Assembly: GCA_041398565.1 (NCBI GenBank)
Contig: JAWKUN010000002.1
Location: forward strand, 338,068-402,067
Reading direction: 5' to 3'
Length of the DNA stretch: 64,000 nt
Source of the DNA: Planctomycetota bacterium
GTDB lineage: Bacteria; Planctomycetota; UBA1135; UBA2386
Shown piece by piece: positions 40,821 to 58,048 of the stretch (position 1 is the first letter of the stretch; each line of letters begins with the position of its first letter). Position numbers and translations under genes: made by a program. The notes under the pieces are model-generated. The model was not told the DNA's origin and ran no database searches. It saw only the letters and a program-made list of their open reading frames with translations.

Positions 40821-42227
40821 ATGAAGGCGTTCGTCTCTTCCACCTACGAGGATCTGCGTGAGCATCGTGCCCACGTGATCTCGGCCCTGCGACGCGCCGG
40901 GATTGCCGTCGACCCGATGGAGGATTGGACGGCGACGGGTTCGGAGCCACGCGAGTTCTGCGCCGACCGGCTTCGGGGCTGTGAAATCTGCGTGCTGTTG
41001 GTCGCCAGGCGGCGTGGCTTCGTGCCGCCGCGCGAGGCCAAGAGCATCACCCAGATCGAGTACGAGGCGGCCCGCGAGCGGAAACTGGAGGTCCTCGTGT
41101 TCCTGCTCGACGATGGCGCGCTGTGGCGACGCGAGTGGGACGAACTCGATCGCGATCCCGAACTCCGGCGCTGGCGCGAACGGCTCACCACCACACATGG
41201 TGTCGAGTTCTTCTCGCACGACCCGCGGTCCATCGACGTCGCGCCGGCTGTCGCGCGATGGGTGGCCAGAGGCGCTCCCCCCCAGCGGGTGGTTCGTGAG
41301 CAGTTCCGCGTCGAGTGGTCGGTGTTCCTGCCGTTCTGCCCGGGCGTGCCACCGCCTGACGGGGAGATCCCGGGGCTGCGGCTGTCGGCTGCGGATGCGG
41401 AGTCGACTAGCTTCGAGTCAGCAGCGGATGCCAATCTGACGATGCGGTGGTTCGGGTTCGGCGGCGCGGTGTGGACGCTGCGGCAGGAGCGCCGGTTCGG
41501 CACCCTCGCGGAGTTCGCGCAATCCCGCCGCCAACTCTACCGGGCCATCCTGCACCACCCCGCGCGCGCTGCGGACCACGCGATCCCGGCGCTGACCGCG
41601 GCAGTGAACGAGGCGGCGGCGGCGCGCTGCGCCGCCGCCCTCTGCCAGCGACAGATCGGGTACGCGCTGAGCCTCGTCAGCCTCCTCGATCCGGGCTGGC
41701 AAACGCTGCAGATTCCGCACGCGCTCCAGGTGCTCGCCTGCCCGAGCCTCCTGCTCAATCTCCCTGAAGCAGAGGACTGTGCCCTCGACGATCATGCCGC
41801 GGACCCCCTGGTCCTGGACCACCGCGAAGCCGCGCTCGTCGCCGACGGCAATCGCGGCCACGACCTGAAGGAGTTCCGCCTGCCCGGCGTGATGCACGCC
41901 GTCGCGTGCTGGGCCGGCGTGGCGGCGCACGTGCAGTCGACGCACCGAGATGCCATGGTTGCGGCATTCGTCCGCTTCGAGGAATTGATCCAAGCGCTAT
42001 GGTGGCGGCTGCACTCCCTTGAATCGCTGCTCGACGTGGGGCAGATCCCACAGGAGGCGAAGGCGCAACTCACGTCCATCGAGCGCCACGTCCACAAGGC
42101 CCTGCGGATCGGTCCGACCGAGGTGACGGCGACGAGGCTGTTCAAGGAAGCCGTTATCCAGACGAGCCGGATCGAGTCCGTCTTCAATGAGTTCCGAAAC
42201 ACGGTGCGAGACCTGAGATCGCCATGA
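40821..42227 (+). CDS. DUF4062-type N-terminal domain protein with an unrecognised ~330-aa C-terminal domain (468 aa)
   Basis: Inner start of ORF 40686..42227. The N-terminus MKAFVSSTYEDLREHRAHVISALRRAGIAVDPMEDWTATGSEPREFCADRLRGCEICVLLVARRRGFVPP...SITQIEYEAARERKLEVLVFLLDD fits the (V/A)F(I/V)SSTxxDLxxER...E signature of DUF4062 (from memory). The rest has no motif I recognise. Confidence 0.75.
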   Translation: MKAFVSSTYEDLREHRAHVISALRRAGIAVDPMEDWTATGSEPREFCADRLRGCEICVLLVARRRGFVPPREAKSITQIEYEAARERKLEVLVFLLDDGALWRREWDELDRDPELRRWRERLTTTHGVEFFSHDPRSIDVAPAVARWVARGAPPQRVVREQFRVEWSVFLPFCPGVPPPDGEIPGLRLSAADAESTSFESAADANLTMRWFGFGGAVWTLRQERRFGTLAEFAQSRRQLYRAILHHPARAADHAIPALTAAVNEAAAARCAAALCQRQIGYALSLVSLLDPGWQTLQIPHALQVLACPSLLLNLPEAEDCALDDHAADPLVLDHREAALVADGNRGHDLKEFRLPGVMHAVACWAGVAAHVQSTHRDAMVAAFVRFEELIQALWWRLHSLESLLDVGQIPQEAKAQLTSIERHVHKALRIGPTEVTATRLFKEAVIQTSRIESVFNEFRNTVRDLRSP

Positions 42228-56400: not shown

Positions 56401-58048
56401 TACCGGCGAACGATGCTTCCTCGGCGTCGAGTATCGCGCGCAAAGCGACTTCGGCGTCGCTCGCATCGATCCCGTCCAGCACCACACGATCGGCCACCTG
56501 TGACGCGGTCGCGAGCACGGTGCCGGCAGTCTGTTGCTGCGAGGTCGGCGCCGATGCCGCTGGCGATTGCGCCGAGATCACGAGCCGAACGCCTGCGGGC
56601 AGTGCTTCGGGTAGCCAGTGCAGCGGCGAGTCCTTGTCGGGAACGTCCAGAAGGTCGACCGCATCGAGGAACAGGAAGAGCGGCTGCTCCGGTGTAGCCG
56701 CCGCGAGACGGTCGGCGAACGAATCGGCTGCCTCGTGAATGTCGCCCCCGTCAACGGCGTCGTCTTGACCGTACCGCTCACCGATCTCGCGATTCAGGTC
56801 CGCGAGGAACGCGCCGACTTCGGCGAGTTCGGGGTTGGACGCGACGTGCCGCTCCACGACGAACGCGCCGCCGTGTCGGTCGCGCGCGTGCTGGGCGGCC
56901 ACCGCCATCAAGGCCGACTTGCCGATTCCTTGCGGGCCGAGAACGGCGAGGGCGCCGGACTGTTTCGAGCTGGCGAGATAGTCGGCGATGGTCTGCAGCT
57001 CTCGCTCGCGGCCGACGAACACGCGCCGCAAGATTCGACTGGCGCGGTCGTCGGCAAACCGTGCGTGATCGCCGTCAGCCCGTTTCCGGCTCGCGTCGAT
57101 CTGTGCCTGGACGACGCGCGCGAGCTGTGCTTCGACCGCCGTCGCGAACCCGCTCAGGTCGTCGACGAGCTTGCCGTCTTCGCATCGGGCGTCGTAGTGG
57201 CGAACATTGTCACGTCCGAGCCGACGTCTTAGCCGGGCCTTGAGCAGTCGCAATCGTCGCTGCGCGGATTCGTCGAGGCGGCCGTCGTCGTCGACGTCGA
57301 CGAAGCCGCGCAGGTCCGTCGCTCGCAGCGGTCGACCGTCGCCCGTCGTCATGCGGCGGTAGAACGCCATGGCGTGAGGCACGGCGTCCGCGACCGCGAG
57401 GGCGCCGCTGTTGATCTCGTGTTCGGTTGCCGATGCGCCGTAGAGCGGTCGCCGACTGGTGTCGCGATACATCGATTCGGTGGCGTCGACGATCGCTTCG
57501 AGCAACGGAACTTCGACCTCGGTTCGCCAGACTGCGGCGTCCTCGAACCGGCCGGTGCGCGGCCGGAGCACGTAGACCGCATCCACGCGAGCATCGTCGG
57601 CGGTTGAAGTGGCGATTGCATTCTCGTCGCGGCGGTACCAGCCGCACGCATCCGCCGGCTGATCCGGACGCCACTCGAGCAACTCCCGCATCGCCGGCGA
57701 GAGTCGTTCGGCGATTCGCTCGAAGTCCCAAGCCGGAATCTCGGTCGGCAGCGGACGCCAGCCGTAGCGCTGGCCGAGCAGTACGAGGAAGCTCGGCGGT
57801 GGCGATGATTCGCGGCAGCGCGCGAGCTCGCGCAGGCAGATCGGCATCGTCTGCTGATCGAGGGCGGCTTCCTCGCTGACGCCCCAGCGCAGATCGATCG
57901 CTTGGAATCGCCAGCCCTGACTCTCGCACAGTTCGCGAATTCGCGGAAACACGGATCGCTGCAGGATGTCGCGTTCCATCGCCATGTCGTCGAACGTCGA
58001 CGACACGAACAGGCGGAAGTCCCGCGCAAGTGATGGTCGCGCTGCCAT
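53417..58048 (-). CDS. STAND/NLR-like NTPase: DUF4062-type N-terminal module, NACHT-like P-loop and C-terminal WD40-like beta-propeller(s) (1543 aa)
   Basis: From ORF 53417..58054; the track start is TTG, and I prefer the ATG at 58048. The N-terminus reads FRLFVSSTFDDMAMERDILQRSVFPRIRELCESQGWRFQAIDLRWGVSEEAALDQQTMPICLRELARC...FLVLLGQRYGWRPLP. Walker A is AVLGPQGIGKSALM and Walker B is LFLFLDAVDLL. The last about 650 aa contain many blade-like segments: VSAVAVARSRRYVAIGTSQGGVFVVNADTG, GALSPDGRRVALSYTGVLYIVDAETR, LIHVWQP, IVAWDTGSG, CLHLWRI, VKDVAFANDGESVHVLCDDGSVRTYRV. Confidence 0.85.
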   Translation of the reverse strand: MAARPSLARDFRLFVSSTFDDMAMERDILQRSVFPRIRELCESQGWRFQAIDLRWGVSEEAALDQQTMPICLRELARCRESSPPPSFLVLLGQRYGWRPLPTEIPAWDFERIAERLSPAMRELLEWRPDQPADACGWYRRDENAIATSTADDARVDAVYVLRPRTGRFEDAAVWRTEVEVPLLEAIVDATESMYRDTSRRPLYGASATEHEINSGALAVADAVPHAMAFYRRMTTGDGRPLRATDLRGFVDVDDDGRLDESAQRRLRLLKARLRRRLGRDNVRHYDARCEDGKLVDDLSGFATAVEAQLARVVQAQIDASRKRADGDHARFADDRASRILRRVFVGRERELQTIADYLASSKQSGALAVLGPQGIGKSALMAVAAQHARDRHGGAFVVERHVASNPELAEVGAFLADLNREIGERYGQDDAVDGGDIHEAADSFADRLAAATPEQPLFLFLDAVDLLDVPDKDSPLHWLPEALPAGVRLVISAQSPAASAPTSQQQTAGTVLATASQVADRVVLDGIDASDAEVALRAILDAEEASFAGSFRMRRTVAPRQLEVLRDRFGERVSPHYSRMIALAAREWRSWENPSNLARSAAEFIRDDLRGLSKVAHHSPVLVRRACAFVLASRFGLTEQELTDLLAADDEFWNDLVADSAHELKGIRAVPASVFLRFCHDIDRFLVPGRAFGGTTLRFAGAAVESVARLLFGSGDDRAAFHSAVARYFCNRPVMTGDSADLRNLTERLHALSLTYDMHDQAEAALLDSEFITAYCTHLHVSYRHTQRVDHLGVMHLANDLQTFAGRNNLPASTRELAADLRRALLAVQLETRMYPELVAQHLANSASASPRIRNSAALHLSRRGVWFRAITPQRTPTSPSRATGRVVLDSAASYDLVSCSPAQRQFVCRSEGPAIGRESLDVWDVDERRKVWTITEHASKSAADTPLAVRWLGDRGLIMTVRKNGDIVAAHIDGRRIAKLATVGADLEAAHIGRDGLVVVAIRMKDVVRFSVVDLVEEDIKDVGDATAQGVVSMASAPDGSAVFAVLGRSEYDGQKSVWRLPIDGSSPSVFFKMEWPSSVSAVAVARSRRYVAIGTSQGGVFVVNADTGFIEACQPGWAERQFRNLTEQHSRRLMVVDGKLADDVTGDTYLRECVTSLVFDDVGQRVIAASSAPDQRLATGGTIALDLGTGVVRRLRDSPDGIRSLDLLAGRNELVAGGMAELFVLNANDNGAMGAELPDGVGLDGGALSPDGRRVALSYTGVLYIVDAETRAVARTVRPGAGFLREPRWHGDLLSAIGADELIHVWQPMTGQRVAVYDPHDDTGAAGSIVRHALLSSGPIACVAAMSDRIVLFGRDGTKAVHRVDARVDDFAVSPSGATCIVALDRVACFAVAIPRWDVLGGIEVESATTRLTLLDDATAITAHGPIAGSIVAWDTGSGDELGRFATAKSRRLLFRGTTSSCQQLIAWRCDDPTFCSVHANGCLHLWRIGSTDPLATLPMDEAVKDVAFANDGESVHVLCDDGSVRTYRVELAAHADRRTS

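Follow-up and report, generated by a model that had tools for sequence, protein, structure and literature searches.

Two NIR (DUF4062)-headed operons beside ISCR elements in a planctomycete genome, one pairing a known effector with an apparently undescribed C-terminal domain-hydrolase module

DUF4062, renamed NIR in one 2026 preprint, is a TIR-like NADase effector domain of anti-phage systems (10.64898/2026.09.04.749371). It serves as the effector of Avs2, of Vulcan (NIR-HEAT) and of Vesta, in which the NIR protein VstA is accompanied by the alkaline phosphatase VstB (Le Mouellic et al., 10.64898/2026.09.04.749371), and also of the single-gene systems Swarozyc and Evangelion, in which DUF4062 is combined with AUX, a C-terminal auxiliary region needed for sensing (10.64898/2026.05.01.722283, 10.64898/2026.06.25.731849). 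The activator of Swarozyc is the phage portal (10.64898/2026.05.01.722283). A catalytic glutamate is required for the NADase effector function in PsAvs2, Vulcan, Vesta, the Swarozyc protein KpSwz, the Evangelion protein Eva01 and TEP1 (10.64898/2026.09.04.749371, 10.64898/2026.05.01.722283, 10.64898/2026.06.25.731849). About 8.7% of prokaryotic genomes have NIR genes, which show an enrichment in the vicinity of defense genes (10.64898/2026.09.04.749371); the domain is also present in human TEP1, NWD1, NWD2 and NPHP3, and a class of bacterial NWD1/TEP1-like NLRs has been noted as well (2026 NIR preprints). The recognition of NIR as an immune NADase dates from 2026 only, and little of its partner repertoire has been charted. 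Here we describe two NIR-headed loci in a 64,000-nucleotide stretch of a Planctomycetota genome (GenBank assembly GCA_041398565.1, contig JAWKUN010000002.1, positions 338,068 to 402,067), referred to below as the window.

The gene map of the window was based on third-position GC analysis together with Pfam and NCBIfam scans. Locus A lies on the plus strand and consists of A1 (40821-42227, 468 aa), with a NIR head (aa 1 to ~150) followed by a C-terminal domain (CTD, aa ~160-468), and A2 (42224-42778), an isochorismatase-fold cysteine hydrolase. Locus B lies on the minus strand and consists of B1 (53417-58048, 1543 aa), a NWD1/TEP1-like bacterial NLR, and B2 (52092-53420, 442 aa), its helical partner. 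The initial annotation of the region had noted that the architectures downstream of the two heads differ, and our scans agree: A1 continues into the unknown CTD and is followed by the A2 hydrolase, and B1 continues into an AAA_16/STAND NTPase and WD40-like regions and is followed by B2. Locus B is an ordinary member of a known NLR-like kind, and locus A joins a known effector to an apparently undescribed CTD-hydrolase module. On balance we favor the view that these are two independent DUF4062/NIR-class operons that function as abortive infection (Abi)-type immune modules, with the mechanisms and the ISCR-based mobility proposed below.

Both loci open with a DUF4062 module, as the initial annotation had recognized, and the outer limits that it gave for the region, 40821 and 58048, coincide exactly with the A1 and B1 start codons. 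With a gathering score of 24.7 bits for Pfam DUF4062 (PF13271), A1 reached 62 bits (aa 2-84 of the trimmed protein) and B1 34.8 bits (aa 14-100, model positions 1-67). The sole link found between the two heads by BLASTP was the 16-aa FVSST(Y/F)(E/D)D(L/M) motif (E 0.02). A profile-profile comparison (hhalign), with profiles made from the relatives of each head, gave a 94.8% probability and an E-value of 4.9e-8 over 75 columns. Because of this profile-profile result the heads are judged to be homologous, yet of different subfamilies, and the possibility that the two N-termini fall in unrelated families was not borne out.

The A1 head is of the short type; among solved structures it comes closest to the Klebsiella Swarozyc protein KpSwz (PDB 10wc, E 2.9e-5). 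The B1 head is of the long type, with the NIR domain of human TEP1 as the best solved relative (PDB 11gz; E 1e-13, or 7.8e-21 with the family profile). As reference for the active site we used the known catalytic glutamates of KpSwz (E97), PsAvs2 (E108), Eva01 (E87-Y88) and TEP1 (E1008), which lie in the motif S-x-T-[EQ]-x-E. A1 E80 aligns with the mutated E97A position of the KpSwz chain 10wc and is invariant in 11 relatives; the surrounding sequence is SITQIEY (E80-Y81), corresponding to SFTEK(E->A)F in KpSwz and SVTEMEV in TEP1. In B1 and its relatives, the RYGWRP strand leads into an insertion of ~95 aa and then into the invariant motif SATE(Q/H)EI, which reads SATEHEI in B1 and includes E211, invariant in 10 relatives. 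When the hidden Markov model of the A1-type head was aligned to B1 with the insertion deleted, the alignment stopped short of the glutamate motif; E211 is the predicted catalytic residue of B1, assigned by motif rather than by continuous alignment across the ~95-aa insertion. By Foldseek, the best matches of the A1 head region were TIR, NDT and SARM1 domains, at E-values of 0.4-1.9 only.

A1-type heads at ~60% identity are found on proteins with other C-termini, including NACHT, and this supports the initial annotation's proposal that DUF4062 is a shuffled head and the common functional denominator of the two loci. The proposal is correct and was already published in the 2026 preprints. For locus A it needs a qualification: the stable unit of this locus is CTD plus hydrolase, and the head is the part that is swapped.

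Beyond residue ~160, A1 matched nothing in Pfam, NCBIfam, PADLOC or the PDB sequences. A profile of the CTD found no PDB chain at E<=1, and Pfam searches of five CTDs at E<=5 returned inconsistent noise only. Close relatives of A1 came from metagenomes only; a related-loci search with alignment A3 yielded none in GTDB genomes and five loci in metagenomes. An exhaustive profile search of 1.84 billion representatives recovered a CTD family of at least 161 clusters, 94 of them at E<=1e-10, in which the CTD is always C-terminal, in proteins of 350-590 aa. Only the N-terminal head varies among the 118 CTD-family members included in a Pfam census: Trans_reg_C (29), HTH_31 (23) and HTH_3 (19), whose counts overlap, SIR2_2 (10), Trypsin_2 (4), DUF4062 (3), TIR (1) and Pkinase (1). 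Among the PADLOC effector models, the relatives' TIR head matched ThsB1 (7e-48), the SIR2 heads matched Aga-SIR2, Dsr2, ThsA and PDC-S65, and the trypsin head matched PDC-M35A; neither the CTD nor its hydrolase partner is covered by a PADLOC model. With an alignment of 118 sequences, the AlphaFold2 (AF2) model of A1 reached a pLDDT (predicted local distance difference test) of 82.6, as opposed to an unusable 55.7 with six sequences. In the CTD (aa 160-468) pLDDT was mostly above 85, with means of 67-98 per 10-residue block, and the predicted fold has a beta-sheet core, after which comes a long helical bundle. Foldseek searches with this model found nothing at E<=1e-3 in PDB or BFVD.

A2 matches Pfam Isochorismatase (PF00857) with an E-value of 1.5e-30 and 107 bits, compared to a cut-off of 27. 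Its D10/K85/C117 triad is invariant in 12 partner sequences from at least five phyla, and a DA(C)xSHAG...H motif is also invariant in the hydrolase partners. A2 scored far below the NCBIfam equivalog cut-offs for PncA, BiuH and RutB, its best, weak match being biuret amidohydrolase, and among the PDB sequences it comes closest to isochorismatases and PhzD, at an E-value of 1e-7 only. We considered A2 as a nicotinamidase that destroys the nicotinamide released by the NADase and so blocks both host salvage and the reconstitution of NAD+ by phage (NARP1/2). NARP1 rescues phages from NIR systems (10.64898/2026.09.04.749371); the SIR2, TIR and NIR heads are all NADases; A2 belongs to the isochorismatase superfamily with its D-K-C triad, and PncA shares the fold. 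Against the nicotinamidase PncA model PRK11609, however, A2 scored 22 bits (cut-off 174), and inspection of the hydrolase family alignment did not show the Asp/His motif (DxH...H) of the nicotinamidase metal site. The hydrolase is, moreover, as tightly tied to HTH (helix-turn-helix), winged HTH and trypsin heads, which make no nicotinamide, as to the NADase heads. We rejected A2 as a nicotinamidase or anti-NARP enzyme on its distance from PncA and on this equal linkage, and regard the idea as highly improbable. Neither isochorismatase nor nicotinamidase is mentioned in the three NIR preprints.

The linkage between CTD and hydrolase is strict. The A2 start codon overlaps the A1 stop codon by 4 bp (ATGA), and A2 is, judged by this overlap, translationally coupled to A1. 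In addition to the window itself, all 19 distinct related loci examined (L001-L003, L005-L008, L010, L012-L014 and L017-L023, with L009 a duplicate of L006 and L011 of L010) have a hydrolase gene adjoining the CTD gene. It lies immediately downstream of the CTD gene everywhere but in L023, which has the two genes in the opposite order. Two of the loci, L022 and L023, were reached from the hydrolase side, and their CTD match is weak (E ~1e-6). Across 120 pairs, the divergence of the hydrolase correlates with that of the CTD (Spearman 0.70). Because of the adjacency in 19/19 loci, the invariant triad and the correlated divergence, we take the stable evolutionary unit of locus A to be CTD plus hydrolase, with the head as an exchangeable output.

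The strict adjacency, the translational coupling and the correlated divergence would also be expected of a toxin-antitoxin-like pair, in which A2, bound to the CTD, keeps the NADase from acting until loss, inhibition or titration of A2 during infection frees A1 (a guard model), catalysis being secondary. Inhibitor-release, or guard-like, logic is common to many Abi systems. The invariance of the triad over at least five phyla argues instead that the enzymatic activity matters, and the pairing persists with HTH heads, which are non-toxic. We consider such a pair improbable, although less so than a nicotinamidase.

Among these loci, NIR heads are present in L001 and L005, Trans_reg_C heads in L007 and L014, SIR2 heads in L010/L011 and in L019 from a Thermoanaerobaculia genome, and unassigned or HTH-like heads in L002, L003, L006/L009 and L008. 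The TIR-headed gene (L013) lies between a relaxase and a type IV secretion system (T4SS) coupling protein. The trypsin head is found in L012 (91-3635), a run of five same-strand genes encoding Macro, Trypco1, Trypsin-CTD, isochorismatase-like hydrolase and NUDIX proteins, which suggests ADP-ribose or nucleotide chemistry around the CTD module. XRE-type HTH heads are present in L020/L021 (Promicromonospora) and on the Streptomyces plasmids L017 (3656-6317, Streptomyces venezuelae NRRL B-65442) and L018, in which XRE-HTH-CTD and the hydrolase are followed by an overlapping gene for an FAD-dependent oxidoreductase and preceded by a GntR regulator. The module is distributed over Planctomycetota, Acidobacteriota, Actinomycetota, Bacillota and Pseudomonadota, on plasmids and on integrative and conjugative elements (ICEs), and its context is often mobile, with T4SS coupling proteins, relaxase, integrase, ParB or Streptomyces plasmids; no copies of the CTD family were found on phages. 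As a separate observation, the SIR2-CTD locus L010 (6347-8995) adjoins the gene for a PHP + AAA_23/AAA_21 protein, a possible defense neighbor.

These contexts bear on a second alternative, that locus A is a small-molecule catabolic or detoxification cassette made of a one-component regulator and an amidohydrolase, with the CTD as a sensor of the hydrolase's substrate or product and with the NIR, SIR2, TIR and trypsin forms as rare stress or suicide offshoots unrelated to phage. HTH and winged HTH heads dominate the CTD family, the Streptomyces plasmids carry the module in an operon with the FAD-dependent oxidoreductase, and there are neither phage-borne copies nor known defense neighbors in the window. 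On the other hand, three families of NADase effectors and a trypsin-like protease at one and the same position are a signature of conflict systems, the heads match the ThsB, Dsr2 and Aga-SIR2 models, and the module occurs as ICE or plasmid cargo and in the Macro-Trypco1-NUDIX neighborhood. NIR itself is an Abi effector by experiment (10.64898/2026.09.04.749371, 10.64898/2026.05.01.722283). A catabolic cassette is thus unlikely in our estimate, yet it is the most probable of the alternatives that we weighed.

A sensing role for the CTD and a ligand-processing role for the hydrolase make up what we infer to be the best-supported reading of locus A. The N-terminal TIR-like NIR domain would hydrolyze NAD+ once the C-terminal sensor is triggered; in A1 this effector would be coupled to the CTD as the conserved sensor or regulatory module of a wider family. 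The most likely task of A2 is to make, destroy or edit a small-molecule ligand sensed by the CTD, and the enzyme would set the activation threshold in the way proposed for VstB of Vesta and MisB of Metis, both of which are thought to control the level of a ligand (10.64898/2026.09.04.749371). The output would be transcription in the HTH-headed forms and cell suicide in the NIR-, SIR2-, TIR- and trypsin-headed forms. Extending this reading, we tentatively propose, as a possibility somewhat short of even, that CTD plus hydrolase is an undescribed, phylogenetically broad sensor-plus-ligand-processing module gating interchangeable outputs (NIR, SIR2, TIR, trypsin-like protease, kinase or DNA binding). 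The effector-headed forms would then be a new family of small-molecule-gated abortive infection systems, triggered by a metabolite of the amide or ureide type that infection generates or unmasks and that the hydrolase otherwise keeps low. A search of the literature for isochorismatase or cysteine hydrolases with defense, SIR2, TIR or NADase found no account of this pairing in what was searchable, PADLOC v2 has none either, and the module is absent from Pfam as well. Locus A is a testable candidate for a new ligand-gated defense family and for a new signaling or trigger metabolite.

In locus B, B1 opens with a NIR head (aa 1 to ~240), followed by a STAND P-loop NTPase, a weakly matching winged helix of the NWD1 type and, as its C-terminal half, a diverged WD40-like region. 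The match of the NTPase was to AAA_16 (1.2e-14), with a Walker A motif GPQGIGKS at residue 371 and a Walker B-like FLFLDA at 458. We recovered 745 B1 homologues of the same architecture from Planctomycetota, Chloroflexota, Acidobacteriota, Armatimonadota and one archaeon, and clear WHD_NWD1 and WD40 matches are present in homologues at 30-36% identity. The PADLOC Avs models did not match B1, the only PADLOC match being a weak one to mad8 (E 2e-4), and B1 has no TROVE domain, its NIR domain starting at residue ~10. The most fitting description of B1 is that of a bacterial NWD1/TEP1-like NLR. In the NCBI gene model (P0027, 1424 aa, 'AAA family ATPase') the start of B1 is placed 119 residues too far downstream, so that the NIR head is lost; the B1 homologues keep the sequence from residue 1. 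Because this short model hides the NIR head, B1-like NIR-NLR proteins are likely under-counted in censuses based on deposited annotations.

The B2 start codon overlaps the B1 stop codon by 4 bp. B2 is an orphan by word-based search, and Pfam, NCBIfam and PADLOC gave no match, with TPR hints below threshold only. Over its N-terminal ~170 aa it is homologous to the genes that lie immediately 3' of P0028 (E 4e-22) and P0048 (E 3e-17), the two closest full-length homologues of B1. The B1-B2 combination is taken to be a conserved pair within a subclade, because B2-like genes lie downstream of these two homologues and none lies beside a third. In B1, the NIR domain would be the effector, the STAND NTPase the oligomerization switch and the WD40 repeats the sensor: ligand binding on the repeats would lead to NTP-dependent oligomerization, which would assemble the NIR domains into an active NADase. 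B2 would be a conserved helical accessory, perhaps an adaptor or an inhibitor. As a bacterial NWD1/TEP1-like protein with an accessory gene, B1 could help to dissect the switching of the NIR domains of human NWD proteins and TEP1.

Proteins of the NIR-NACHT-WD40 kind are very numerous in Planctomycetota, Chloroflexota and Acidobacteriota, the neighbors of the B1 homologues are otherwise ordinary genes, and the window is rich in kinases, FG-GAP and repeat proteins. It could be argued from this that the two NIR loci lie together without shared function, B1 being a non-immune STAND-WD40 signaling protein of a planctomycete with a complex lifestyle and locus A a chance ISCR cargo. The catalytic glutamate and the P-loop are intact in B1, however, NIR-NLR-like proteins are significantly enriched beside defense genes (10.64898/2026.09.04.749371), and the closest B1 homologue lies beside a TIR_2 gene. 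We regard this co-location without shared function as distinctly unlikely, more so than the catabolic cassette and slightly less so than the toxin-antitoxin-like pair. The TIR_2-domain gene, just upstream of that closest full-length homologue (L004, 6156-7310), is a possible defense neighbor in its own right.

Both operons adjoin copies of an ISCR/IS91-like element. Copy 1 (38443-40493, plus strand) contains a Y2_Tnp open reading frame (ORF, 39108-40340; 6.9e-14, 52.7 bits). The left part of copy 2 (47176-49488, plus strand) contains the 3' end of a kinase gene and a full-length Y2_Tnp ORF (47840-49402; 4.8e-21, 76 bits). Both Y2_Tnp matches exceed the cut-off of 20.9; the NCBIfam model of ISCR clade Ia gave 154 bits for copy 1 and 210 bits for copy 2 and did not reach its cut-off of 925. 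The two copies form a direct repeat of 2.06 kb (38443-40493 and 47176-49216), with 95% identity over 2059 bp that is unevenly distributed, at 99% in the first ~900 bp and 83-88% in the distal part. The products of the two transposase ORFs are 92% identical to about residue 390; the 3' end of the copy 1 ORF is diverged and truncated, and this copy is probably inactive. The repeat starts within the 3' end of the kinase gene (38443-38961 matching 47176-47694), and copy 1 carries a kinase fragment of ~520 bp (ORF 38296-38961) that is devoid of a kinase domain. Because the direct repeat begins inside the kinase 3' end, the fragment in copy 1 is taken to be transduced, in line with the co-mobilization of adjacent DNA expected of ISCR-type elements.

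A third, 5'-truncated ISCR copy (24297-25174) helped to resolve the structure of copy 2. In this copy, 24297-25062 is joined to 25056-25174, corresponding to 48727-49488 joined to 51314-51433; the 3' part of copy 2 matches 24297-25062 at 90% identity, and 51314-51434, the right-hand remainder and terminus of copy 2 (plus strand), matches 25056-25174 at 98%. Since the third copy shows the uninterrupted junction, the IS1380-family element at 49489-51313 (plus strand; transposase 49560-51131) is an insertion into ISCR copy 2. Its transposase scored 278 bits with NCBIfam transpos_IS1380 (cut-off 180) and matched Pfam DDE_Tnp_1_4; clear terminal inverted repeats of the element were not found. The ISCR ends were placed solely by where the copies stop matching, and homology between copies stops at 51433/25174.

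The homology of copy 1 is lost at 40493, 330 bp before A1. Directly 3' of locus A, a 32-nt motif (42952-42983, plus strand) has 84% identity to the last 32 nt common to copies 2 and 3 (51403-51434, 25144-25174) and forms a hairpin (DNA fold -13.9 kcal/mol, z -2.8). The flanks of locus A, a truncated ISCR transposase gene on one side and an ISCR-end-like motif on the other, are consistent with passenger cargo or with an insertion into the element. In locus B, the end of ISCR copy 2 lies ~650 bp from the 3' end of B2, together with IS1380. The initial annotation had both loci bounded by IS91 debris, which agrees with our analysis for locus A, with truncated ISCR on the left and the end-like motif on the right, and for one side of locus B but not for its other side within the window. 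We tried the ORF at 58259-59896 as IS91 debris on that far side and rejected it, as it has no similarity and no family match. Both operons adjoin ISCR/IS91 copies, and locus A lies between a transposase gene and an end motif; rolling-circle (ISCR-type) mobilization, or recombination between ISCR copies, would be the likely route of acquisition. At the end of the window, a 49-nt stretch (63950-63998) is 96% identical to 38872-38920 and 47605-47653, within the C-terminal coding sequence of the kinase (CELEAVKDKRAGPGWR).

The lower G+C content that the initial annotation ascribed to both inserts is clear for locus B and borderline for locus A. The window has a G+C content of 70% (mean 0.70, sd 0.025 in 1.5-kb windows), and its longest low-GC stretch is locus B (0.66 vs 0.70 +/- 0.025), with B1 at 0.666 (11th percentile) and B2 at 0.661 (5th percentile). 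Locus A as a whole, at 0.681, falls at the 30th percentile, and only A2 is low (0.652). The other genes between the loci are one for an ELWxxDGT-repeat protein (43105 to ~46200, minus strand) and one for a Ser/Thr kinase (46453-47694, plus strand). The ELWxxDGT-repeat protein has eight repeats by NCBIfam TIGR04534 (E 1e-96) and no Pfam match; its gene, which is divergent from the kinase gene, contains DNA repeats with a period of ~38 nt. Beyond locus B lie the ORF mentioned above (58259-59896, plus strand) and, from 60281 on the plus strand, DUF1800/DUF1501 genes. This ORF has 545 codons, an elevated third-position GC (0.79) and a high second-position GC; it is unassigned, with no match in Pfam, NCBIfam or PADLOC, and may not be a real gene. 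The remaining genes of the window have ordinary planctomycete functions, including FG-GAP proteins, GH2, Lon, an ECF sigma factor and kinases. A scan for sigma-70 promoters and terminators around locus A gave nothing above shuffled sequences.

The Hanks-type Ser/Thr kinases at 46453-47694 (plus strand) and 27950-31639 (minus strand) gave very strong matches to the PADLOC PD-T4-6 and mad6 models, down to 2.5e-72. We rejected the former as a defense gene, its many PD-T4-6 matches reflecting generic Hanks-kinase similarity; the PD-T4-6/mad6 matches come from the generic kinase domain, and this domain is likely to give rise to false defense calls in genomes rich in kinases.

Several observations weigh against the view of both loci as immune modules. 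Apart from these generic kinase matches, PADLOC detected no further defense system among the window ORFs tested, and the window is not recognizable as a defense island of the kind that the initial annotation had in mind. The NIR domain of A1 was modeled at low confidence (pLDDT 46-83). DNA-binding heads are carried by about two thirds of the CTD proteins, and the Streptomyces plasmid versions come with the FAD oxidoreductase, a pattern that suits a metabolic regulator-plus-enzyme cassette no less than immunity. The CTD has no characterized fold relative, and instead of small molecules it could sense proteins, or it could serve as a scaffold for oligomerization. In B1, HTH_NWD1 reached 19.4 bits with a cut-off of 27 and every propeller family stayed below its cut-off, leaving both the winged helix and the WD40 repeats sub-threshold, and a B2-like partner is absent beside P0096, one of the three homologues checked. 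Finally, the ISCR-end motif after A2 is a short one, of 32 nt at 84% identity.

Compared with the described mobile elements, the window copies resemble ISCR elements in having a Y2 transposase related to clade Ia, an adjacent kinase fragment that was duplicated along with it, and a passenger operon between the transposase gene and an end-like motif. They differ from clade Ia in their scores (154-210 bits vs 925), in having no defined oriIS and terIS, and in the truncation of copy 1. B1 shares with NWD1, NWD2, TEP1 and the bacterial TEP1-like proteins the order NIR-NACHT/STAND-WHD-WD40 (WHD, winged-helix domain), with WHD and WD40 parts that are putative in B1, a head closest to that of TEP1 and the S-x-T-E-x-E motif. 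Unlike TEP1, it lacks TROVE, has the ~95-aa insertion in the NIR domain and is followed by the helical B2, which the preprints do not mention. With PsAvs2 (NIR-STAND-TPR, a terminase sensor) it has in common the effector-STAND-repeat logic and the NIR effector; its repeats are WD40-like rather than TPR, and this, together with the missing PADLOC Avs match, places it outside Avs1-5.

The A1 head, with its E-Y pair, is of the same short type as the DUF4062 heads of Swarozyc (KpSwz, 10wc) and Evangelion (Eva01). The match of A1 to KpSwz is confined to residues 3-119, however, and the CTD profile misses the full-length KpSwz (326 aa) in the PDB library; unlike Swarozyc and Evangelion, locus A consists of two genes as an obligate unit and has a CTD of 300 aa, and we do not count it as a Swarozyc. 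Nor is it a Vulcan, in which NIR is fused directly to HEAT repeats, since the CTD model consists of a beta-sheet core and a helical bundle and has no HEAT/ARM match in Pfam. Locus A is similar to Vesta in having two genes, a NIR NADase head with an uncharacterized, putatively ligand-binding C-terminal domain, and a tightly linked small-molecule hydrolase. The hydrolases differ, VstB being an alkaline phosphatase, an enzyme that locus A does not encode, and A2 an isochorismatase-fold cysteine hydrolase. Locus A is set apart from Vesta by this partner enzyme, with which the CTD family always pairs, and by the swapping of the head among NIR, SIR2, TIR, trypsin and HTH domains.

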